Assembly: GCA_046567085.1 (NCBI GenBank)
Contig: JBKICP010000167.1
Coordinates: 3,051 to 67,050, forward strand
Direction: 5' to 3'
Source: Acidobacteriota bacterium
Lineage (GTDB): Bacteria; Acidobacteriota; Terriglobia; Terriglobales; Acidobacteriaceae
Length of the DNA: 64,000 bases
Part shown: one piece after another, positions 8,501-57,688 of the stretch
How the letters are laid out: each line of letters begins with the position of its first letter
Numbering within the stretch: position 1 is the stretch's first letter
Notes under the pieces: model-generated
Database searches by the model: none
Told to the model about the DNA's origin: nothing
What the model saw: only the letters and a program-made list of their open reading frames with translations
Translations under genes and position numbers: made by a program

Positions 8501-10165
8501 TCACATGAACTGGCGCATCAGGAAGAAGATGCCGGCGGCGAGCAGCGCGGCGGCCGGCAGGGTGAAGACCCAGGCAAGAGCGATGTTGCGAATGGTGGCG
8601 AACTGAAGCCCGCTGCCGTTCGCCGGCATCGTGCCCGCCACCCCCGAAGAGAGAACATGCGTGGTGGAGACGGGCATGTGGAACTGGTCCGCGCCGACAA
8701 TCGTGACCGCCGCAACAATCTGCGCGGCTGCCCCCTGAGCGTAAGTGAGGTGCTGCTTGCCGATCTTTTCGCCGACGGTGACCACGATGCGCTTCCAGCC
8801 GACCATGGTGCCCAGGCTCAGCGCGAGCGCGACTACGACCTTGACCCACGTGGGAATGAACTTGGTGGCGTTGTCGAGCTGATTCTTGTAAGCATGAAGG
8901 TCCCTGTTCTCCGCGGGCGTAAAGACCGGAGTTCCGTCCGTGCCGGCGTTCCTCGCCATCAGGCGGAGCGACTCGCTCACAATGTACATGTCGTTGCGAA
9001 CGTTTTCCTGCTAGCCGGCGGGGACTTTGTTCAGCGACTTGTAGAGGACGACTTCGTCGGAGATCTGATCGACCATCTGGCGCGTCGCGGCCAGCGTGTC
9101 CGGCGTGAACTGCCGGGTGCTGATATAGCCGGTGAGAACGGCGCGCGGATCCGGCGGGTCCGCCTCTGCGGAGGAGAGGTGGCGATCGAAAACCGCTTCC
9201 GCCTCGTGAGAGATGGCGGCGAAGGTCTGCGTCTGGCGATAGCCAACCGCGTGGTTGAGCGCGTAGGCGGTGGGCACCGTGCCGATGAGGATCAGCATGA
9301 TGAGCCCCATGCCCTTCTGGCCGTCGTTGGAGCCGTGACCGAAGCTCACACCGGTGCAGGTGAGGATGAGCAGGGCGCGAATCCACAACGGCGGCGGCTC
9401 CGATCCCCTGGGCGATTCGTAGAGAGCTTTGTTCCTGACGAAGACTTTCAGAATGAGCAGGAAAAGCGCCGCGCAGCCGAAGCCGACCACGGGCGAGATG
9501 AGCAGCACTTTGAAAACGCTGGAGGCTTGTTCCCAGTCGACGCCGCTGGTGGCGGTGCGCGAATTCATCAGCTGGTTGGCGATGCCGACGCCGATGATGG
9601 AGCCGATGAGAGTGTGCGAACTGGAAGCCGGCAGTCCGAACCACCAGGTGCTCAGGTTCCAGAGAACCGCCGCAATGAGCAGCGAGAAAACCATGGCGAA
9701 GCCCGGGCCTCGACCCACCTGGAGGATCAGTTCGACGGGCAGCAGCGACAGGATGGTGAAGGCGACCGCTCCGGAAGAGGTGAGAACGCCGATGAGGTTC
9801 CAGATGCCCGACCAGACGACGGCGACGTTCGGCTCCAGCGAATTGGTATAGATCACCGTGGCCACGGCATTGGCGGTGTCGTGAAAGCCATTGACGAATT
9901 CGAAACCCAGGGCAATCAGCAGCGCCAGGCCGAGCAGGATATAGGGCCACGCTGAGGGCAGATGGACGGCGGAGAGATCGCGGGCAATCTGCGACGCGGC
10001 ATAGATGAGGCCCGCGACCAGAGCCGCTGCAAAAAGCAGAATCCCGAACCGGCTGGGTGAGGCTTTCAGCCTGGCATCGGGAAATGAAGGGGAATAGATA
10101 ACGCTTTCCGGGGATACAGCGGCCGGAATCGGTTCCGGAATGGAGAGCCTTGCTCCTGCAGCCAT
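8501..10165 (-). pseudogene. PiT/PHO4-family inorganic phosphate transporter interrupted by an in-frame TAG (pseudogene or split gene)
   Basis: ORFs 9011-10267 and 8501-8989 share one reading frame. They are separated by TAG (plus-strand cta at 9011-9013). First half has GFEFVNGFHDTANAVAT; second half has VSTTHVLSSGVAGTM. Confidence 0.6.
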
Positions 10166-49095: not shown

Positions 49096-49431
49096 CGCAC
49101 TGTTTCCTGCCACTCGATTCTCCTTAAACTTTGCAAAAACCAAAGATCAGTACCTTTTTAAGGCGGTCCGCCACACATCCCTGTCAATTTCTCTTAACAT
49201 CAGGACCGTCGTTTCCCTTTTCATTCTCCCCCACGACAAGCATTTTGAGGAATCTTTGCTCGGGCGCGAGTAACTCGCCGAGGTAACTCCCTCGAGGAGT
49301 ATTGATGCCTGAGTTATATCCTTGCGCTCCTCCCGTTGACAGGAGACATACACGGTGGCACCATCGTGGGACCCTGCATTTGCATTACTTGCTTTCCCCA
49401 GGGACTCACGATTCGCGCGGGTGACGATGCC

Positions 49432-52400
49432 ATGCTCCAGTCCAGAGGACTTCTGTCCAGGCCCTTGCAGTGTGCCCTCATCCTTGCAGCCGCATTCTCA
49501 GTCCAGCCGACTGCCGACGGTCAGTCCAGGGAAATTCCACAAGGACGCCCCGACCCCGGTCTGGCGCGATCCCAAACGGTTCGATTCAGACCGCAATCCA
49601 CCGGCGTTGCCGGAAGCGGCAACCTTTGGCCTGCGGTGAGCGGCGTCGCCACCGTCTATTACGAAATCGATGGCTCTTCGGGGGATGTGACCAACATCAA
49701 CAATGCGATTACGCAATTTAACTCGGACTTTCCCGGCGTGATCCAGTGGGTGGACAATACCTCGCTCGGTTCCCCGAGTCCGAACTATGTACTCATCAAC
49801 CTCAGCACCAGCGACACCAGTGGTGTGTGCGAAGCGAATGTTGGCTATGACGCGATGCCGGCTCAGCCCGTCTCCGGATCCGCGAACTGCGACGAGGCGA
49901 CAATTCTGCATGAGATGGGCCACGTCATCGGACTGTGGCACGAAATGACCCGCACCGATCGCGATACCTACGTCACCGTGAACTACAACAACGTGACCAA
50001 GTCCGATTATCCGGGCAACTTCCTCATCAACACCGAGAATCAGCAGCTCCTCACAAAGTATTTCGATTACGGTTCCCTGATGCAGTATGGGGCCGCGGAT
50101 TTTTCCCGCAACAACGGCCCGGTGATTGAGAGCATCCCGGCCGGGATCCCGATGAACATCGAAGGACTTCCCGCTCCCGGTCCCAACACCAGTCCTGAGC
50201 CTGCGGATTATTCAGCCGCCGACAAGGAAGGCATTCTTCGCCTCTATGGTGCGCCGCCCACCGCGGTTACGATTACATCGAACCCGGCCGGCCTGCAGGT
50301 GATCGTGGATAGCACGACCTACACCACGCCTCACACATTTCCTCTGACCGGCGCCTGGGCGATGGGCACAACGCATACGCTCGATGTCCCGACCGGCGTG
50401 CAACAGCTATCGGGCTACATTATCGACAGCACGGCTGCGGCGAGTTTTTACTACACCTATGGCCGCTGGAACGACTCCACAGCGCAGCAGCACACCATCA
50501 CGATTACGGCGGGCGATGGCAGTCCGGGCTTTCCGCGAACCTCGCCCGAGGTGACCACCTACACGGCAAACTTTATTCAGCTGGTGCCGTATACGGCAAC
50601 GGCCGACCCGACGGGGTCGGGCACGATCAGCTCCAGCCCGCAGCCACAGGCGTATTCCGACACCAACAACAATCCCCTTGGAAATTTCTTCGTGGCCCGG
50701 CAAAACGTTACATTAACCGCCACCGCAAACTCGGGATGGAACTTCTACTGGTTCAATAACGCGCCGTTTTGGCTCCCCGGCGGCCTCTCGACCAATCCAA
50801 AGGAGCTGTTTGTTCCCGACACAGGCACTCCCATCAATTCCACCATCTATTTCTCGCCGTCGAGTAACCCGCTCTACATCGTCAATGTAACGCCGTCGGA
50901 AACTCTCGCGAACCAGTTTGCCCTGAATTGGTATGCCGACGTGGACGGTTCCTACTGGCTTGCGCCCAAGACGTTTTCCCCCAATTACTGGTCCGATGGC
51001 ACAACCTGGACGACCGGCAGCACCCACACCCTCAGCATCGCGTCGCCGATGTATGTCGGCTCCAACACGAGGTATGTCTTCAATAACTGGAGCGACGGCG
51101 GAGCGCTTTCGCATACCACAGGTCCGCTTCCGGCGACCAACGCGACTTACACAGCAACCTTCGATCCGCAGTTCGCTCCTTCGACGGGCGTGAATGCTTC
51201 CTGCGGCGGTTCAGTGACCATCAGCCAAACATCGCCAACCGGCGACGGCTTCTATCCCTGGGGACAGACGCTCACCTTCACCGCGACTCCCAATCCCGGC
51301 TGGAATTTCACGGGATGGAGCTACGATCTGGCGGGAGGATCGAATCCGGACACCATCACCGCTGACGATGAGACGCTGGCCTACGCCAACTTCAATACGA
51401 CCACCGATCCATTCGCATTCACAGGCATCAGTCCTGCCTCGGTGCAGGCGGGCACGAACGGCACGACCCTGATCCTCACAGGAACAGGATTTGATGCGGC
51501 GAACTCCTATGTGTTCTTAGGCAATACACAGCTGGCCACGACGTTCAGGAGCTCCACAGAACTGGATGCGACCGTAACCCCAGCCGAGCTCGCAAATCCG
51601 GCAACCTATCCCATCTATATTGAAAACTTTCCCAGTGGCGCCACCTGCGCCGCCTTCGGGGGCCAGACCTTTAAGGTTACGGCCCCACCGGTTACGCCGA
51701 CAATTTCCTGGACTCCGGCAGGTACCATCATCTTTGGCGATGCGGGAACGAAGGTTCTGACCGCAATCGCCAATGCTCCAGGCGCCTTTACCTACTCGGC
51801 GACACAGGGCGGTGCGCCGATCAATGTCACCAGCGGAACGCAGGGGTTGGCGGCCGGTTCCTGGAATATCACAGCAACCTTTACCCCGACCGACCCCACC
51901 ACCTACGCCACCGCACAAACAACCCTGGCCATCACGGTGAGCGGCGAGAGCGTGTGGATCCTGAACAGCGGAGGCAGCGGTGCAGAACTGGCAGGGGACG
52001 GGTACGGGATCTCGACGAGCGCCTACCCCGGAGCCAATACGGCTATCGCCATCGACAGCGGCGGCAACGTGTGGACGGCGGGCACCGGACCCCTGCTCGA
52101 GGAGACCAGCCAGGTGGGCACGGTGCAGAACACGATCAGCTCCGGAGGCGGGCTGAACGCGCCCGCTGGAATCGCCATCGACGGACTGAGCCAGGTGTGG
52201 GTGACCGACGGCAACAACAGCGTGAGCCAGTTCAGCAACGCCGGCGCGCCCGTCTCGCCCTCGACCGGTTACACCGATACCTCGCTCGCGACGCCCATCG
52301 GCATCGCCATCGATCAGGCGGGCAGCGTGTGGGTCGCCAACAAGGGCAACAACAGCCTGACGAGAATCCTGGGCGCGGCAGCCCCCGCTGCGCCTCTCTC

Positions 52401-52440
52401 CACGGCAGCAAAGAACAACACAACGGGAGCACGGCCATGA
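49432..52440 (+). CDS. Secreted multidomain protein: astacin-like (M12A) zinc metalloprotease + divergent InlB-B-like repeats + IPT/TIG + C-terminal NHL repeats
   Basis: Signal peptide. HEMGHVIGLWHEMTRTDRD (HExxHxxGxxHExxRxDRD) and Met-turn SLMQY. NHL-like GLNAPAGIAIDGLSQVWVTD and PIGIAIDQAGSVWVAN. Confidence 0.85.
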   Translation: MLQSRGLLSRPLQCALILAAAFSVQPTADGQSREIPQGRPDPGLARSQTVRFRPQSTGVAGSGNLWPAVSGVATVYYEIDGSSGDVTNINNAITQFNSDFPGVIQWVDNTSLGSPSPNYVLINLSTSDTSGVCEANVGYDAMPAQPVSGSANCDEATILHEMGHVIGLWHEMTRTDRDTYVTVNYNNVTKSDYPGNFLINTENQQLLTKYFDYGSLMQYGAADFSRNNGPVIESIPAGIPMNIEGLPAPGPNTSPEPADYSAADKEGILRLYGAPPTAVTITSNPAGLQVIVDSTTYTTPHTFPLTGAWAMGTTHTLDVPTGVQQLSGYIIDSTAAASFYYTYGRWNDSTAQQHTITITAGDGSPGFPRTSPEVTTYTANFIQLVPYTATADPTGSGTISSSPQPQAYSDTNNNPLGNFFVARQNVTLTATANSGWNFYWFNNAPFWLPGGLSTNPKELFVPDTGTPINSTIYFSPSSNPLYIVNVTPSETLANQFALNWYADVDGSYWLAPKTFSPNYWSDGTTWTTGSTHTLSIASPMYVGSNTRYVFNNWSDGGALSHTTGPLPATNATYTATFDPQFAPSTGVNASCGGSVTISQTSPTGDGFYPWGQTLTFTATPNPGWNFTGWSYDLAGGSNPDTITADDETLAYANFNTTTDPFAFTGISPASVQAGTNGTTLILTGTGFDAANSYVFLGNTQLATTFRSSTELDATVTPAELANPATYPIYIENFPSGATCAAFGGQTFKVTAPPVTPTISWTPAGTIIFGDAGTKVLTAIANAPGAFTYSATQGGAPINVTSGTQGLAAGSWNITATFTPTDPTTYATAQTTLAITVSGESVWILNSGGSGAELAGDGYGISTSAYPGANTAIAIDSGGNVWTAGTGPLLEETSQVGTVQNTISSGGGLNAPAGIAIDGLSQVWVTDGNNSVSQFSNAGAPVSPSTGYTDTSLATPIGIAIDQAGSVWVANKGNNSLTRILGAAAPAAPLSTAAKNNTTGARP

Positions 52441-53840
52441 GACGAGCCTCGATGCAGGCAACGACGATGCTGGCAGCGGTAGGCGCACTGGCGCTGGCCG
52501 GGTGCGCCACGAATGCGACGATGAGCGTGAACCCCCAGCCGAAGCCGGCCCCCGCAGCTACCGCCGTTCAGGGAGAAGCCTTCGGTGGACAGCAGCCGGT
52601 GGTGGGCATGTCGCTCCAGCTCTACGCAGCCGGCACCAGCGGCTACGGCTCGGCGGCGACGGCGGTGTTCGGCACCCCGTTGACGACCAACTCTAACGGC
52701 GGCTTCACCTTCCCCACTGGGTGGGCGAGCGGCTGTCCCACAACCACGTCTCCGGTCTATCTGGTGGGAACCGGCGGCGACCCGGTGGCTGGGAACACTT
52801 CGAACGGAGGCAGCACGGCGGCCAATCCTCAGCTTGCCCTGGCGGTCGCCCTGGGCCCGTGCAACAGTCTCAACTCGAGCACGCACATCCACATGAACGA
52901 GCTGACCACGGTCGCCGCGGCATGGGCGCTGGCCCCGTTCATGAGCGGCAACACGACGAGCTACCTGAACGTGGGAACCTCCTCGACCAACACCGCCGGT
53001 CTGGCCATGGCCTTTGCCGCGGCAGCGCAACTGGTGAATACCTCCACCGGCACGGTCGGAGGCTCAACCCTGCCCGCCGGCGCGACCGTGCCGACGGCAG
53101 AGATCTACAGCATCGGTAACATCCTCGAGGCGTGCATCAATTCAAAGGGTGGAGTGGCCAACGATGGGACGGCGTGCGGCACGCTGTTCGGGGACACGCC
53201 TTCCAGCACTGGCTATCCCACCGACACGATCACCGCGGCCATGAACATCGCGCAGAATCCGGGGAGGAACGTGGCGGCGCTGTTCAACATCGCCACCGGA
53301 ACGCCGGCGTTTATGACGCCCCTGACCTCGGCGCCCAATGCGTGGACCATCGCGATCCAGTACACCGGCGGCGGCCTGAACGCGCCAACCGCGATCGCCG
53401 CCGACCAGTCGGGCAACATCTGGGTCGCCAACAGCGCCAGCACCGGCACCGGCGCTGTCTCTCTCTTCGACAATCTGGGTAACAGCAAGCTCGGAACCAC
53501 CGGCGCGACGATCGGCGGTACGCCGGGCGGCCTTGCCATCGATCTGAACGGGAACGGGTGGGTGACCTCGTCCAACAACGAAGTCTACGAGCTTACTTCG
53601 AGCGGGACCACCACCACCACGCTTACCGGCAACGGCCTCAACCTGCCTACCGCAATCGCCATCGACCCGAGCAGCAACATCTGGCTGGTGAACAGCGCCA
53701 GCGGAGCCAATACAGTGAGCGCCTTCACCAGTGCCGGCGGTACGGTCAGTGGATCGCCGTTCTCCGGAGCAGGCATTGCAGCTCCGGCCGGCATCGCCAT
53801 CAACGGCAATGCCAACGCCAACTGCGCCGATTGCCACTAG
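52437..53840 (+). CDS. NHL-repeat lipoprotein
   Basis: ATGA overlap with the upstream stop. Lipobox LALAGC. NHL repeats (APTAIAADQSGNIWVAN, LPTAIAIDPSSNIWLVN). Ends in NCADCH. Confidence 0.8.
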   Translation: MRRASMQATTMLAAVGALALAGCATNATMSVNPQPKPAPAATAVQGEAFGGQQPVVGMSLQLYAAGTSGYGSAATAVFGTPLTTNSNGGFTFPTGWASGCPTTTSPVYLVGTGGDPVAGNTSNGGSTAANPQLALAVALGPCNSLNSSTHIHMNELTTVAAAWALAPFMSGNTTSYLNVGTSSTNTAGLAMAFAAAAQLVNTSTGTVGGSTLPAGATVPTAEIYSIGNILEACINSKGGVANDGTACGTLFGDTPSSTGYPTDTITAAMNIAQNPGRNVAALFNIATGTPAFMTPLTSAPNAWTIAIQYTGGGLNAPTAIAADQSGNIWVANSASTGTGAVSLFDNLGNSKLGTTGATIGGTPGGLAIDLNGNGWVTSSNNEVYELTSSGTTTTTLTGNGLNLPTAIAIDPSSNIWLVNSASGANTVSAFTSAGGTVSGSPFSGAGIAAPAGIAINGNANANCADCH

Positions 53841-53946
53841 CACGGGGTTTCATGCGATGTCGTGCGAAGGCGCAACCCAGGCATCGATTCGCACAATCTG
53901 CGCAGCTCCCCAGGAAGGATCTCGCAGCTCACAGTTCAGGATCAGG

Positions 53947-54801
53947 ATGGATTTGCAGCTTCACACCTCGCGCGACGCAGCCGAAACCACGGCGCTCCAC
54001 ACAGGCCCTCACCTCGCCCTGAGGGCCTGGGGCGTGCCTTTCCGGCTCTCTGCGGAAACCGGCTCTCTGCTCGAGCGAATGCGGGCTCATGCCCCTTTCG
54101 GCTCGACGGAGTGCGACCGCCAGTCCTCGGCGATACACACCTTCACGCTGCGCAGCGTTGAGGCGGACGGTCATTACCGCGTGCAGTTCGGCGATCAGCT
54201 GCTGGTGGATGCGGCGAAACTGGATTCGGCCCTGATCCAGCTCGGCGGCCACATGATGATGCATGTCGCCGAGCATTCTCCGGATTACGTCTTCCTGCAT
54301 TCCGGCGTCGTTGGCTGGCAGAATCGTGCGCTGCTGTTGCCCGGCGCGAGTTTTGCCGGCAAGTCGACCCTCGTTGCTGAGCTGGTGCGGGCCGGCGCCA
54401 CCTTTTATTCCGACGAGTTTGCGCTCATCGATGCCGAAGGCCGCGTGCATCCGTTTCCTCGCGACCTGCAACTCCGCAGTCCGGGCCGCGTCGAGCAGAC
54501 CGTTGTACCCCTCGCTCAACTCGAAGGCCGCGCCGGCAAAGAGCCCATCCCTGTCTCACTCGTCATCTTCACGCAGTTTGCTGAAGACGCGCGCTGGTCG
54601 CCCGAGCCGGTTTCCCCTGGCCGAGCCGTACTGGAACTGCTGCTGCACAGCACGCCCGTTCAGCGCGCCCCCGCGCGCGTTCTCGCGACCCTCACTGCGA
54701 TGATGCGCAACGCCACGGCATGGCGTTCGCCCCGCGGAGAAGCCAGCGCCGCGGCCCGCTCGCTGCTTGCCGCTCTCGCCGCAGGAGGGCCACCCGCATG
54801 A
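53947..54801 (+). CDS. HprK-related kinase (HPr kinase C-terminal-like P-loop protein)
   Basis: FLHSGVVGWQNRALLLPGASFAGKSTLVAELVRAG (Walker A GxxxxGKST) in an HprK-like context. An alternative start lies at 53857. Confidence 0.75.
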   Translation: MDLQLHTSRDAAETTALHTGPHLALRAWGVPFRLSAETGSLLERMRAHAPFGSTECDRQSSAIHTFTLRSVEADGHYRVQFGDQLLVDAAKLDSALIQLGGHMMMHVAEHSPDYVFLHSGVVGWQNRALLLPGASFAGKSTLVAELVRAGATFYSDEFALIDAEGRVHPFPRDLQLRSPGRVEQTVVPLAQLEGRAGKEPIPVSLVIFTQFAEDARWSPEPVSPGRAVLELLLHSTPVQRAPARVLATLTAMMRNATAWRSPRGEASAAARSLLAALAAGGPPA

Positions 54802-55934
54802 GACCCGGCATGCACTGGCTGCTCCGGCTGCTGCGTGGACAGGCGCGGTGGAACGACGCCCCCGAGACGGAGTGGATGAAGGTACTTGATCTCGCCGAGC
54901 AGGAGAACGTTCTGCCGTGGGCTGCAACCCGTCTGCGCGCACAGCTCGACAACTCCGCGTCGCCCTTTGCAGCACGCCTCGAGCGGGTCGCGCGCAACGC
55001 TCGCGTCTTCGCCTTTCTCTGGAGCGCGACGCTGCGGTCGACGCTCGCGGAATTCCACCATCGGTCCATCCCGGTTCTTTCGCTCAAGGGGCCATGGATG
55101 GCCCATCGGTTGTACGGCGATGCGTCGCTGAAACTCTACAGCGACCTTGATCTCCTTGTGCATCGCCAGGACATCGCTCGCGCCGAGAGCCTCCTCGTCC
55201 AACTGGGCTTTCATGCCAAAGAGAGACGCGACGACTACCATCGTCCCTGGCATCGCGAAGGCCTCAGGATTGAGCTTCATCACGATGTAGAGAACCCGCT
55301 GGCGTTCGACTTTCGTGTCGAGGACGCATGGGGCCGCGCGGTGCCCGCCGCATTCGACGGTGTCCCGGCACGGCTGCTCTCGCCTCCCGACGAATTGCTC
55401 TTCCTTTGCCTGCACAGCGTGCGCCATCGCTTCGAACGTCTCAGCCACGTCCTCGACCTGCTGCTGGCCTTCCATCATTTCGGCGATGCTGTCTCTGCAG
55501 CGGCAAAGTGCGCGCCTGCCGCCCAGCGCGTCCTGACTCTGGGAGCGATCATGGCCTCGCGCCTCGACCCTCGCTTTGCCGTTCCGGCCGAATTCGCTCG
55601 CACGTCCGACTACACGGCGCTCGAAAGGCTGGCCGATTCGCTCTGGGAGGAGCGCATGCAGCAGCCGGCGCCTGCCCTCGACTGGAAGCTGCAGCATCGG
55701 TTCTATCTCGCCCTCGAAACACGCCCGTGGGATCGTCTGTTCGCTCGCTTCCGCCACCTCCGCATCCTCGCTACCCGGCTCATCGAGCCGGACTTCGCCT
55801 TCGCCGCGCGGTTCCACCTTGATCGGAGCTGGCAAGTCTGGCTCGTCAGACCCATTCGGCTCTTGCGCAGGTCTGCAATGCGGCCTCCCGCGGATCCACG
55901 ATGGTCGCCTGAGAACATTCACGTCAACGGCTGA
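54798..55934 (+). CDS. PF14907 (NTP_transf_5) nucleotidyltransferase family protein
   Basis: ATGA overlap with the kinase stop. Pol-beta-like NTase motif LKGPWMAHRLYGDASLKLYSDLDLLV, followed by LELHHDV. Confidence 0.8.
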   Translation: MRPGMHWLLRLLRGQARWNDAPETEWMKVLDLAEQENVLPWAATRLRAQLDNSASPFAARLERVARNARVFAFLWSATLRSTLAEFHHRSIPVLSLKGPWMAHRLYGDASLKLYSDLDLLVHRQDIARAESLLVQLGFHAKERRDDYHRPWHREGLRIELHHDVENPLAFDFRVEDAWGRAVPAAFDGVPARLLSPPDELLFLCLHSVRHRFERLSHVLDLLLAFHHFGDAVSAAAKCAPAAQRVLTLGAIMASRLDPRFAVPAEFARTSDYTALERLADSLWEERMQQPAPALDWKLQHRFYLALETRPWDRLFARFRHLRILATRLIEPDFAFAARFHLDRSWQVWLVRPIRLLRRSAMRPPADPRWSPENIHVNG

Positions 55935-55971
55935 ACGGCAACAGAATCGAATGCAGGAAAGGAAATTCAGG

Positions 55972-56394
55972 ATGAACTCGACCCTAAGGCCACGCAGCAT
56001 GCGCGACGAGCGAATTACGGTTCAGCAGGTAGGTGAGGAGACGCTCCTGTACGACGAGCGCACCCATCGGGCCTGGTGCCTCAACGCCAGCTCCGCCTGC
56101 GTCTGGCGCCTCTGCGATGGCCAGACCACGGTGGCTCAGATCGCTGCCGGCGCCGCGGCGGAGCTGCGTGCGCCCTTCAGTGAAGAACTCGTCCTGTTGA
56201 CCCTTGCGGAATTGCGCGAGCAGGGCCTGCTGCAGTCCGACCCAGGGGACGCACTGCCGCAGGGGGTTACGCGACGAGCCATCATCGGCAGGATCGGCCT
56301 CACCGCGGCTGCGCTGCTCCCGGTGATCGCCGCCCTCACCGCGCCGCCCGCCTCAGCGCAGGGTGGATCGGTCGGTAGCGGTGGGAACGGGTAG
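55972..56394 (+). CDS. PqqD-family (RiPP recognition element-like) protein with C-terminal Tat-signal-like hydrophobic tail
   Basis: LLYDERTHRAWCLNASSACVWRLCDGQTTVAQIAA...LAELREQGLL is PqqD-like. Tail is TRRAIIGRIGLTAAALLPVIAALTAPPASAQGGSVGSGGNG. RBS AGGAAAGGA. Confidence 0.8.
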   Translation: MNSTLRPRSMRDERITVQQVGEETLLYDERTHRAWCLNASSACVWRLCDGQTTVAQIAAGAAAELRAPFSEELVLLTLAELREQGLLQSDPGDALPQGVTRRAIIGRIGLTAAALLPVIAALTAPPASAQGGSVGSGGNG

Positions 56395-56440
56395 CGCCTC
56401 CCGAAACCCCGGGCCGGCTCTCCATCGTTACAATCGCCTT

Positions 56441-56683
56441 ATGCACGACGTGATCGTCTATTCGCGCAAAGGCTGCCATCTCTGCGATGTCGTGAAAGAG
56501 ACGCTGACGCGAGTCCAGAGCGAGGCCGACTTCCGGTGGCGCGAGGTGGATATCGACACGGACCCGCAGTTGCAGCAGAAGTACAACGACGAGGTCCCCG
56601 TTGTCGTGATCGACGGACGCAAAGCGTTCAAGTATCGCGTCGACGCGCGTGAGTTTCTGCGTGCTCTGGCGGCACGAGAGTAG
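56441..56683 (+). CDS. Glutaredoxin-like small protein (DUF836-type)
   Basis: 80 aa. CxxC motif (KGCHLCD) in a thioredoxin-fold pattern: VIVYSRKGCHLC...VDIDTDP...VPVVVIDG. Confidence 0.8.
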   Translation: MHDVIVYSRKGCHLCDVVKETLTRVQSEADFRWREVDIDTDPQLQQKYNDEVPVVVIDGRKAFKYRVDAREFLRALAARE

Positions 56684-56704
56684 AACACTCGGGGCTTTGC
56701 CCCG

Positions 56705-57688
56705 TCAACGTTTCATCCCTGCCAGCTCCACCGCCTGCGCTTCTGTCCCCGGCTGCGATGCGAGCGCCGGAACCAGCCATCTCCGGTATGCCCGCAAATG
56801 TCCGCGCATCGCCTCGAAGTACAACCGCCTCACCTCGCGCGTGATTGCGCCAATGGCCCCGTCGTTGACAGGCCGGTTGTCCACACGAACCACCGGCGCA
56901 ATGCCCACCGCTGTCCCGGTAAGAAACAGCTCCTCGCACACATACAATTCGCTGCGGTCGATCGCCCGCTCCTGTACTGCCAGCCCCATCTCCCGCTCCG
57001 CCAGTTCCATGACTGAATCCCGCGTGATCCCTTCCAGCACGTTTTCCGTCACCGCCGGGGTTACGAGTTTGCCTTTGCGCACCATAAAGAGATTGCAGGT
57101 CGCGCCCTCGGCCACCTGGCCGTTTTCGTTCAGCAGCAGCGCCTCATCGAAACCGGCGCGTCGCGCATCGTCGCTCGCCAGGGCGCTGTTCACATACGCT
57201 CCGCAAATCTTGGCCCGGGCCGGAATCGAATTGTCTTCGATCCGCCGCCAGGAGCTCACCCCCGCATGCACGCCCTTATCGCTGGGCAGATATTCGCCGA
57301 ACGGCAGCGCAATCACCGCGAAGGCATCCTGATCGTCCGTGGCCACACCCACCCGCTCCGCACACTTGTAGGCGATGGGCCGGATGTAGATGTCGCTGCG
57401 AAACCCGTTCCGCCGCACCAGTTCTGTCGTGATCGCAGTGAGTTGCTCGGCCGACGGGGGAACCTCGATGCGCAGGATGCCGCAGTTCTGCTTCCAGCGC
57501 TGATAGTGCTCGCGCGGCCGCACCAGAAACAGCTGCTCCCCGGCATCGTCCCAGTATCCCCGGATCCCTTCGAAGACGCCGGTTCCGTAATGCAGCGCGT
57601 GTGTCAGGATCCCCACGCGCGCTTCGCGCAGCGGCACATACTCGCCGTTGAAATAGATAATCAGATTTGGATCCGCTTCAGCTTGCAT
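56705..57688 (-). CDS. ilvE: Branched-chain amino acid aminotransferase (class IV)
   Basis: HALHYGTGVFEGIRGY, YIRP, and EGATCNLF regions. Confidence 0.9.
   Translation of the reverse strand: MQAEADPNLIIYFNGEYVPLREARVGILTHALHYGTGVFEGIRGYWDDAGEQLFLVRPREHYQRWKQNCGILRIEVPPSAEQLTAITTELVRRNGFRSDIYIRPIAYKCAERVGVATDDQDAFAVIALPFGEYLPSDKGVHAGVSSWRRIEDNSIPARAKICGAYVNSALASDDARRAGFDEALLLNENGQVAEGATCNLFMVRKGKLVTPAVTENVLEGITRDSVMELAEREMGLAVQERAIDRSELYVCEELFLTGTAVGIAPVVRVDNRPVNDGAIGAITREVRRLYFEAMRGHLRAYRRWLVPALASQPGTEAQAVELAGMKR

Follow-up and report, generated by a model that had tools for sequence, protein, structure and literature searches.

Closest Described Systems

Some lasso peptide gene clusters encode a set of tailoring proteins. 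In these clusters, an HprK homologue phosphorylates the precursor peptide, and the phosphate then receives one or two hexoses from a nucleotidyltransferase (PMC8498205). We analyzed a locus of similar composition in a 64,000-nucleotide stretch of DNA from an Acidobacteriota bacterium of the family Acidobacteriaceae (assembly GCA_046567085.1, contig JBKICP010000167.1, positions 3,051 to 67,050 of the forward strand), and the whole stretch is called the window below. The locus is a block at positions 49432–56683 that contains an astacin-NHL gene (G1), an NHL lipoprotein gene (G2), an HprK-related kinase gene (G3), a PF14907 nucleotidyltransferase gene (G4), a PqqD-like gene (G5) and a glutaredoxin-like gene (G6). 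Our main finding concerns G5. Judged from its sequence and its relatives, it is not a free-standing chaperone with a plain RiPP recognition element (RRE; RiPP, a peptide made on ribosomes and modified after translation) but a fusion of an RRE, a twin-arginine translocation (Tat)-type signal and a variable tail. Therefore, the precursor that had seemed to be missing from the locus is probably present.

By analogy, the locus would work most like a lasso system in which a kinase and a nucleotidyltransferase tailor the precursor, though it is not a lasso cluster. The lasso tailoring systems of paeninodin (PadeK) and pseudomycoidin (PsmK/PsmN) likewise combine a small HprK-related kinase, a nucleotidyltransferase and a PqqD/RRE fold. 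However, the window locus has no cyclase, B2 protease or ABC exporter; its RRE and the putative substrate are parts of one protein, in which an export signal comes after the RRE, and the acceptor would not be a C-terminal Ser. A first-pass annotation, made from the sequence of the window alone, had already listed an Asn-synthetase-like cyclase and a B2 protease as missing. We found the same: tblastn with Asn synthase returned nothing in the window, none of the six genes matches a B2 protease, and none of the annotated recurrent neighbor clusters of related loci does so. The C-terminal Ser acceptor known from lasso precursors does not apply here, since G5 ends in Gly and only 8 of 163 members of its family end in Ser. 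Against the lasso PqqD model NF033530, G5 reaches 19 bits, where the cutoff is 70, although its fold is still B1-like. A lasso cluster at this locus was rejected on these grounds, and what stands is a real cassette of kinase, PF14907 nucleotidyltransferase and PqqD-like genes without lasso machinery, as had been proposed.

The trio might instead be a tailoring set that acts in trans for a conventional lasso cluster elsewhere in the genome. The only characterized pairing of an HprK-like kinase with a nucleotidyltransferase comes from lasso clusters, and the RRE of G5 is closest to lasso B1 proteins. We regard this explanation as very improbable. In addition to the missing cyclase, the low score against the lasso PqqD model and the failure of the C-terminal Ser rule, the Asn synthases annotated among the neighbors of 80 related loci carry a full GATase, as AsnB does, and a lasso B1 protein needs neither an export signal nor a variable tail.

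HPr-rel-A (TIGR04352, kinase A; TIGR04353, PqqD family chaperone) is a second described system with the same three kinds of genes in one uncharacterized neighborhood. The first-pass annotation had placed the trio there, but the best scores were 68 bits against 200 for TIGR04352 and 16.3 bits against 35 for TIGR04353 (E = 0.015). Because both curated cutoffs were missed, threshold membership was rejected. Furthermore, TIGR04353 is a bare PqqD model of 74 positions, whereas G5 adds a twin-arginine signal and a tail.

Architecture of G5

G5 (positions 55972–56394, plus strand) encodes 140 residues. Pfam matches and the architecture of its family point to an RRE/PqqD domain, a Tat-type signal and a short tail, and we propose G5 as the precursor and hub of the system. 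Residues 8–88 (55993–56235) make up the RRE, a PqqD-like winged helix that is predicted to be cytoplasmic. Pfam PF05402 (PqqD) matches G5 with 39 bits against a threshold of 23.4. In the AlphaFold2 (AF2) model, the mean predicted local distance difference test score (pLDDT) of 10-residue blocks is 79–95 over residues 8–88, which form three strands and then three helices. The best Foldseek matches of this domain are the lasso B1 structures TbiB1 5v1u and 6jx3 (TM-score on target 0.65–0.72) and PqqD 5sxy. With a PF05402 score above threshold and a winged-helix model, G5 is thus a PqqD/RRE protein, and in both respects it is like the stand-alone RREs PqqD and TbiB1. However, known RREs are separate or enzyme-fused and bind the leader in trans, whereas the RRE of G5 lies upstream of its own apparent substrate. 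In strands 2 and 3 and helix 1, residues Y27, D28, H32, A34, C36, L37, N38 and W45 are invariant or nearly so, and therefore a conserved partner is implied.

Residues 100–129 (56269–56358) form a twin-arginine-type signal that consists of T-R-R-A-I-I-G-R-I-G, the hydrophobic stretch LTAAALLPVIAALTAPP and then A-S-A; R101 and R102 are invariant in the close-family alignment. Sequence features of a Tat preprotein can be recognized, namely the twin-arginine motif, the hydrophobic stretch and a predicted signal-peptidase-type site. Like known Tat signals, that of G5 combines [ST]-R-R-x-hydrophobic-hydrophobic-x-[KR] with a stretch of moderate hydrophobicity, a Pro that breaks the helix and an A-x-A site. 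Unlike them, it follows a soluble domain of ~95 residues instead of standing at the N-terminus or after membrane helices, and its cargo is very small. Internal Tat signals are known from membrane proteins targeted by both Sec and Tat, such as the actinobacterial Rieske proteins. One relative of G5 scored just under threshold with Tat profiles (13.7 bits against a cutoff of 16.7 for TIGR01409 TAT_signal_seq, and 17 bits for formate_TAT).

The tail, QGGSVGSGGNG (residues 130–140, 56359–56391), carries the clade motif [SG]-G-S-x-G-[ST]-G, and the tail alignments suggest it as the exported core peptide. Three candidate substrates had been named in the first-pass annotation: the own tail of the PqqD protein, the C-termini of the NHL proteins, and a precursor encoded elsewhere. 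The comparative data favor the first.

A Large Family of RRE, Signal and Tail Fusions

With a profile built from 21 homologues, a search of 1.84 billion cluster representatives gave 8,651, 4,919 and 692 G5-family representatives at E ≤ 1e-3, 1e-10 and 1e-30, respectively. The homologues in genome loci have a common plan: a PqqD-like domain of ~95 residues comes first, then the motif [ST]-R-R-x-hydrophobic-hydrophobic-x-[KR]-hydrophobic-G, then a signal, and last a lineage-specific tail. The signal has a moderately hydrophobic stretch, a Pro-containing c-region in which a basic residue is common, and a small-x-small site (typically APTAAQA, and APPASA in G5). The twin arginines, the hydrophobic stretch and the small-x-small site were kept in 146 of the 147 best distant representatives. 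Tails in the best 147 representatives have a median length of 61 residues, and 71% of 163 members have Ser or Thr at +2 relative to the predicted cleavage site.

The tail is the variable part of the protein. Mean pairwise identity in the window clade is 0.62–0.68 for the RRE and the signal (0.68 for the signal) versus 0.23 for the tail. A Longimicrobiales locus (L078) has three tandem copies of the G5 type, the leaders of which are 94–95% identical and the tails 72–81%. The number of Cys residues is even in 123 of the 142 tails that have at least two. The knottin-like spacing C-C-CC-C-C occurs in 25 of 148 representatives and in 18 of 55 members from genome loci, so that many tails of the family resemble knottin (inhibitor-cystine-knot) peptides, the knottin fold being suggested by Cys spacing only. 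In contrast to these, the tail of the window G5 has no Cys.

The G5 family has the sequence and gene-order properties of RiPP precursors: a conserved leader and a variable core, tandem copies, and an adjacent kinase and nucleotidyltransferase. Leaders of the size of a domain are known among RiPPs, in the nitrile-hydratase-like NHLP and the Nif11 types. The G5 family is similar to them in that a long conserved leader derived from a domain precedes a short hypervariable core, sometimes in several copies per locus. It differs in that the leader is an RRE fold with an export signal and not an enzyme-derived sequence with a Gly-Gly site. The first-pass annotation had seen no obvious short precursor gene. 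In agreement with this, all the small open reading frames (ORFs) at 53800–56750 are frame shadows, and a hidden short precursor ORF between or inside G3–G6 was rejected. However, the conclusion that the precursor is missing does not stand, since G5 itself is probably the precursor.

We are highly confident that G5 is one member of a large and unannotated family of RRE/Tat-type signal/tail proteins linked to the kinase. The protein P0121 is 100% identical to the window protein, and the public labels for the family are only “PqqD family protein” or “peptide modification chaperone”. In the literature that we searched, mostly without subscription journals, no description of a fusion of an RRE, a Tat-type signal and a tail was found.

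A few tails of the family are Hint-like. They have ~150–190 residues, start with G-C-V-L and contain VSHN 5–50 residues from the C-terminus, and their signal has T-R-A or S-R-R (L021, 8988–9851; L043, 8918–9781; P0260; P0291; P0316). Pfam Hint matches P0260 below threshold (E = 2.5e-4), and these tails resemble an autoprocessing domain of the Hint/intein type.

Gene Neighborhood across Bacteria

Two scans were made. The kinase-anchored scan covered 80 loci with one genome per GTDB species; the six window proteins were mapped by tblastn and the neighboring ORFs were clustered. The separate G5-anchored scan was made on metagenome contigs, where close relatives were distinguished from distant ones (<55% identity). 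The kinase loci come from Acidobacteriota (Acidobacteriaceae, Blastocatellia/Pyrinomonadaceae and Vicinamibacterales), Gemmatimonadota, Eremiobacterota, Abditibacteriaceae, Actinomycetota and Proteobacteria.

A G5-family gene was found in 43 of the 64 kinase-anchored loci with enough flank, usually as the next gene, and a gene of the G4 type followed the kinase in at least 48 of them. From the other anchor, a kinase or a nucleotidyltransferase was present at 14 of 19 close loci and 11 of 13 distant ones; in the latter the kinase adjoins G5, often in the order kinase-G5-nucleotidyltransferase. The adjacency of kinase and G5 is therefore reciprocal: it was found from either search anchor and across about six phyla, and the PF14907 enzyme is usually alongside.

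Other arrangements were observed around the family. In L037, L070, L075, L079 and L080, a knottin-like G5 gene is inserted between the kinase and the nucleotidyltransferase. A knottin-like family gene at 9977–10471 of L128 (also in L127) lies just downstream of a 159-residue ORF resembling a receiver domain; its neighbors look, by eye, like housekeeping genes (DnaC-like, RarA-like and glycogen-debranching-like), and no kinase lies within 10 kb. In L039 (3367–4887), L047, L058, L060, L066, L073, L160 and L162, a gene for a membrane protein with MauE/DoxX and two thioredoxin-like (redoxin/AhpC-TSA) domains lies directly next to a G5 gene whose tail is Cys-rich, and Peptidase C25 genes occur near Cys-rich members in five loci. 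The MauE-redoxin protein is plausible as a dedicated disulfide-forming partner. Both kinds of neighbor fit a tail that would be disulfide-bonded and processed outside the cytoplasm, and in the Acidobacteriaceae the astacin and NHL proteins might take this part.

The Kinase and the Nucleotidyltransferase

G3 (53947–54801, plus strand) encodes a predicted cytoplasmic P-loop kinase of 284 residues with the HprK/PEPCK fold. The start at 53947 is that of the NCBI record and of the Logan gene call, the protein P0001 is 100% identical with 284 residues, and an alternative start lies at 53857. The best NCBIfam match, TIGR04352 (E = 5e-19), covers profile positions 74–160 of 280, that is, the P-loop core only. 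TIGR00679, the model of the true HPr kinase, gives 11 bits against 240, and thus G3 is not an HPr kinase. The Walker A segment LLLPGxSxAGKSTLVAEL (GxSxAGKST) and YSDE are invariant in 20 G3 homologues. A search of the PDB for sequence relatives of G3 or G4 found none, and the fold was then compared for the kinase only. The AF2 model of G3 has a pLDDT of 88, and its best PDB fold matches are ATP-dependent PEPCK and HprK/P (probability 1.0, E = 6e-5 to 4e-3). At the level of the fold, G3 is thus an HprK/PEPCK protein, with Walker A in a PEPCK/HprK-type fold in the predicted model. A few kinase homologues (P0067, P0094, P0096 and P0101) carry a precomputed PF27840 assignment, and P0067 has no match in the Pfam that we searched; Pfam may recently have curated this kinase family as PF27840.

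G4 (54798–55934, plus strand) is predicted to be a cytoplasmic nucleotidyltransferase of the NTP_transf_5 type. It matches PF14907 at 7e-43 (147 bits against 31.2), and its translation holds the motif KG...YSDLDLLV. Neither G3 nor G4 has a signal peptide, and the catalytic motifs of both are intact. Antisense to the whole of G4 lies an ATG-initiated ORF of 446 residues without family matches (54660–56000, minus strand), with equivalents in L001, L006 and L009. It is a typical frame shadow of high-G+C DNA. Because this shadow displaced G4 when genes were picked by length in the window and a few loci, the cluster counts of the nucleotidyltransferase are underestimates.

The kinase and the nucleotidyltransferase could also act on a non-peptide substrate of the envelope, for instance a glycan, a phosphonate-like small molecule or an intermediate linked to a lipid, and G5 would then be a co-regulated secreted peptide or scaffold. 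This is suggested by the Blastocatellia/Pyrinomonadaceae, where GT4/Wzy_C/TPR-CBM operons end in the pair and ~20 Pyrinomonadaceae-type kinase-nucleotidyltransferase loci have no G5. Wzz/BY-kinase, AsnB, GT1 and epimerase genes are neighbors of the kinase elsewhere, G3 has a weak match to the FomB family, and the PEPCK-like fold also occurs in small-molecule kinases. On the other hand, the tight reciprocal adjacency of kinase and G5 persists across phyla, often as the sole conserved pair; the window and, in general, the Acidobacteriaceae loci have no glycan genes beside the cassette; and the characterized relatives of the kinase-nucleotidyltransferase pairing act on peptides. We therefore consider the explanation unlikely.

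The Pyrinomonadaceae/Blastocatellia operon has a recurrent order, in which the kinase and the nucleotidyltransferase close a series of a GT4 (WecA-like) gene, a Wzy_C (O-antigen-ligase-like) gene, a TPR gene, a gene for a secreted protein of ~210 residues and a TPR+CBM_4_9 gene. It was seen from −7.2 to +1.9 kb around the kinase in L016, L018, L023, L025, L027, L029, L031, L033, L036, L051 and L072. By eye, the housekeeping genes downstream are tsaB-like and rimI-like.

The NHL and Astacin Proteins

G1 (49432–52440, plus strand) encodes an NHL class A protein with a signal peptide, for which Pfam and NCBIfam matches indicate an astacin (M12A) head, Ig-like/CoaZ repeats and a C-terminal NHL propeller. 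The Pfam scores are 85 bits against a cutoff of 22.5 for Astacin (5e-24) and 33 bits against 20 for NHL (PF01436), Flg_new_2 was also matched, and the NCBIfam CoaZ repeat (“choice-of-anchor Z”) gives 56 bits. The zinc motif is intact in the translation, as HEMGHVIGLWHEMTRTDRD plus SLMQY (pattern HExxHxxGxxHE...RxDRD). The C-terminal tail, ...ILGAAAPAAPLSTAAKNNTTGARP (window 52369–52437), is conserved. Full-length orthologues of G1 are upstream of the kinase in L001, L004, L007, L008 and L011, while the other Acidobacteriaceae loci conserve only the C-terminal NHL part, so that the astacin head belongs to only some class A proteins (5 of 15 genome loci).

G2 (52437–53840, plus strand) encodes an NHL class B protein with the lipobox LAGC in its translation, which marks it as a putative lipoprotein, and with the C-terminus ...AINGNANANCADCH. 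Alone, its NHL match is below threshold (PF01436, 17.5 bits against 20), whereas its orthologues and the class C paralogues reach 46–64 bits. Orthologues with 55–65% identity have the same position in L004–L008 and L011. In the kinase-less loci L082–84, L086, L092 and L094, the G2 type is directly upstream of the PqqD-like gene. Altogether there are three orthologous NHL classes, each with its own conserved C-terminus: A is G1-like, B is G2-like and C is missing from the window.

In the Acidobacteriaceae the kinase loci (L001–L015, kinase identity 47–70%) include 11 of 15 with at least 2.5 kb on both sides. At every locus, between one and four paralogous NHL-propeller genes lie directly upstream of the kinase, which makes 11/11 with enough flank, and NHL genes were present at 19/19 close G5-anchored loci with enough upstream sequence; L114, which ends at a contig edge, has none. 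The G5-type gene is placed between NHL genes in L009, L010, L012, L014 and L015. Outside the Acidobacteriaceae, NHL genes were found at 0 of 53 kinase-anchored and 0 of 13 distant G5-anchored loci. Hence the NHL linkage named in the first-pass annotation recurs within the Acidobacteriaceae, in 30/30 loci with enough flank, and is confined to them; elsewhere, the cassette lies among glycan and envelope genes. As far as gene order can tell, G1–G5 are a genuine recurrent module in this family.

All the NHL-linked loci belong to the Acidobacteriaceae, so shared ancestry contributes, and it may be asked whether the juxtaposition is ordinary synteny or chance without a functional link. This seems hardly credible. 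The linkage survives at 47% kinase identity, with G5 rearranged among the NHL genes and with outer flanks that mostly differ between the loci; the ATGA overlaps point to translational coupling; and the linkage is kept in every locus with enough flank.

Some loci have only part of the module. The closest species-level relative (L001, 6923–11919; kinase 70% and G1 75% identical) has the astacin-NHL, kinase and nucleotidyltransferase genes and no G2 or G5 within 10 kb. In L082–84, L098 and L104, G5 directly follows NHL-B, with no kinase within 10 kb. Gene content suggests that the module may be split into two complementary sites in some genomes.

The first-pass annotation had also considered the NHL proteins as substrates. 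In that case the RRE of G5 would bind in trans to their C-terminal tails (...PLSTAAKNNTTGARP in class A, ...PVKTPLLGPPAQP in class C), and the kinase and the nucleotidyltransferase would modify them before export. The tails contain Ser/Thr and are conserved across the paralogues, the NHL linkage is universal in the Acidobacteriaceae, and L001 has the astacin-NHL, kinase and nucleotidyltransferase genes without G5. However, the kinase-G5 pairing persists outside the Acidobacteriaceae, where no NHL gene was found. With Sec or lipoprotein signals at their N-termini, the NHL proteins would stay in the cytoplasm only briefly. Such substrates would also give no reason for a protein that joins an RRE, an export signal and a variable tail. 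NHL substrates are thus quite improbable in our view, somewhat more so than a non-peptide substrate. The conserved Pro/Ala-rich ends of the class A and class C proteins in L004–L015 (...ILGAAAPAAPLSTAAKNNTTGARP and ...FIGVAAPVKTPLLGPPAQP) could be a sorting, processing or modification signal.

A motif C-x-[DN]-C changes place between two clades. The window clade has it at the C-terminus of NHL-B (...NANCADCH, window 53796–53837), and its G5 tails are free of Cys. The sister clade has it where the G5 tail starts (AQA-YSGCVDC), and the C-terminus of NHL-B there is ...AVTPK. The motif was at one of the two sites, never both or neither, in 16/16 loci inspected (including L009, L010, L012, L014, L015 and L082). 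One hint from this is that the tail of G5 and the C-terminus of NHL-B may meet outside the cytoplasm. However, the swap is effectively one evolutionary event, because just two clades differ.

The same motif bears on the possibility that G5 is an uncleaved single-pass membrane adaptor. Its signal would then be a signal-anchor, its outer tail would contact NHL-B and its RRE the kinase and the nucleotidyltransferase, and the whole would be a trans-envelope sensing or assembly device. The topology, with the N-terminus inside and the C-terminus outside, would be the same as for a secreted precursor. The window tail has just 11 residues of low complexity, NHL-B adjoins G5 even without the kinase, CxDC is never at both ends as if the ends may meet, and L082 has a Trans_reg_C/PD40 regulator upstream. 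Against such an adaptor, conservation of the small-x-small site and of the c-region with its Pro follows the pattern of signals that are cleaved. Elsewhere, the tails are hypervariable, resemble knottins and occur in tandem copies, which is the pattern of secreted products, and no sigma factor or response output is consistently linked; moreover, the CxDC swap counts as one event in two clades. We give this adaptor a low probability, similar to that of the non-peptide substrate.

Proposed Mechanism

The reading that we tentatively favor, at somewhat less than an even chance, is that G5 is a precursor with its own recognition domain, which would be tailored by the kinase and the nucleotidyltransferase, exported by Tat and cleaved. 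First, the RRE would recruit the kinase in cis in the cytoplasm, and the kinase would phosphorylate a Ser/Thr near the junction of signal and tail; the best candidate acceptor is the conserved S/T at +2 (GS in this clade). The PF14907 enzyme would then extend the phosphate with a glycosyl or nucleotidyl group, by analogy to PsmK/PsmN of pseudomycoidin. Next, the twin-arginine signal would carry the C-terminal tail across the membrane via Tat while the RRE stays inside. Signal peptidase would finally cut after A-S-A129 and release QGGSVGSGGNG, or in other lineages a disulfide-rich, knottin-like peptide. In the Acidobacteriaceae, the putatively co-transcribed G1 (astacin-NHL) and G2 (NHL lipoprotein) proteins may be extracytoplasmic partners that bind or process the released peptide.

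Several observations weigh against this reading. Every biochemical step in it, that is, modification, export and cleavage, we infer from sequence. The AF2 monomer leaves residues 100–140 of G5 at low confidence and undocked, with no part of the signal or tail on the RRE. The window G5 itself has no match to the Tat hidden Markov models, and its signal is internal, from residue 100 behind a folded domain, an uncommon place for Tat signals. Because the lasso C-terminal Ser rule does not apply, the choice of acceptor residue is a guess, and at +2 G5 has Gly, with Ser at +4. The second step appeals to the nucleotidyltransferases of lasso clusters, which are presumably PF14907 proteins.

The genomic data also contain points of this kind. 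No G5-family member was within reach at 20 of the 53 kinase loci outside the Acidobacteriaceae. Conversely, 5 of 19 close G5-anchored loci and L082–84 have NHL genes without a kinase or nucleotidyltransferase nearby, and L127/L128 carry orphan copies of the family amid housekeeping genes. Because of the kinase-less NHL/G5 loci and the orphan copies, the partnership of kinase and G5 is not obligatory in cis. The weak resemblance of G3 to FomB, a small-molecule kinase, together with the glycan/envelope operons of Blastocatellia, makes a non-peptide substrate possible. Nevertheless, no rival explains the combination of RRE, export signal and a hypervariable, Cys-paired tail that is often present in duplicate as well as a G5 precursor with its own leader.

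Layout of the Block and the Position of G6

The first-pass annotation had described six co-directional genes, and all the ORFs are present on the plus strand where it placed them. A gene call made independently on a copy of the contig (L081) gave identical boundaries for the six genes, and Pfam and NCBIfam profile searches bore out the domain calls for all of them. A base-by-base check showed that the ATGA start/stop overlaps at 52437–52440 (G1/G2) and 54798–54801 (G3/G4) are exact. The gaps are 37 nucleotides between G4 and G5 and 46 between G5 and G6, as reported, and the range of 16–106 nucleotides given for G2–G3 is explained by the two possible starts of G3, 53857 or 53947.

Minus-strand genes flank the block on either side. 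The divergent region at 49144–49431, which separates G1 from a minus-strand phospholipase-C-like gene, probably holds the promoter of the block; its G+C content is 0.57–0.58 versus 0.63–0.68 within the block. A scan of this region upstream of G1 for the sigma-70 consensus gave no match, and the promoter is therefore proposed from position only. Promoter and terminator scans gave no limits of the transcription unit, the three terminator-like sites being fewer than the 5.8 expected by chance. Neither an Rfam family nor a tRNA was found when the window was scanned.

G6 (56441–56683, plus strand) encodes a glutaredoxin-like DUF836 protein with CxxC (Pfam Glrx-like, 76 bits). With tblastn, no G6 homologue was found at any of the 80 kinase-anchored loci or the 19 close G5-anchored loci with enough flank. 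Because G6 is never conserved with the block, it is a probable bystander and was rejected as a sixth member of the module. Thus, the proposed six-gene unit is reduced to five: G1–G5 recur, and G6, without a counterpart in related loci, is probably outside the module and only a co-directional neighbor. By eye, a TACAAT hexamer at 56429–56434 stops 6 nucleotides ahead of the G6 ATG, with no obvious Shine-Dalgarno sequence, and a GC hairpin, CGGGG-CTTTG-CCCCG, lies at 56690–56704 between G6 and a convergent branched-chain aminotransferase gene; the consensus scan flagged neither.

Biological Meaning

We regard the system as RiPP-like, with a cis-RRE and a Tat-type leader, and there is a fair chance that it forms a new class. 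In its widest form this idea is possible yet doubtful: an undescribed class of secreted peptides would carry their own RRE and Tat leader and a phospho-linked (glycosyl or nucleotidyl) group near the cleavage site, added before export by the HprK-like kinase and the PF14907 transferase, thousands of clusters in soil phyla would belong to it, some members would be knottin-like, and the Gly/Ser peptide of the Acidobacteriaceae would work with the NHL and astacin proteins at the cell surface.

If true, this would be a new design of peptide natural product, in which the recognition element is inside the substrate, export is of the Tat type, and a kinase and a nucleotidyltransferase are the only tailoring enzymes. 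It would also give a function to 4,919 cluster representatives (E ≤ 1e-10) that are now only “PqqD family protein”, and would hint that Acidobacteriota and other soil bacteria that are hard to culture are a reservoir of secreted peptides that are small and disulfide-rich. It would also open the uncharacterized pairing of HprK-like kinase and PF14907 enzyme to a direct test, since the neighboring gene encodes a defined candidate substrate. In the Acidobacteriaceae, a gene set for a surface protease and propeller proteins would be linked to a specific small peptide.

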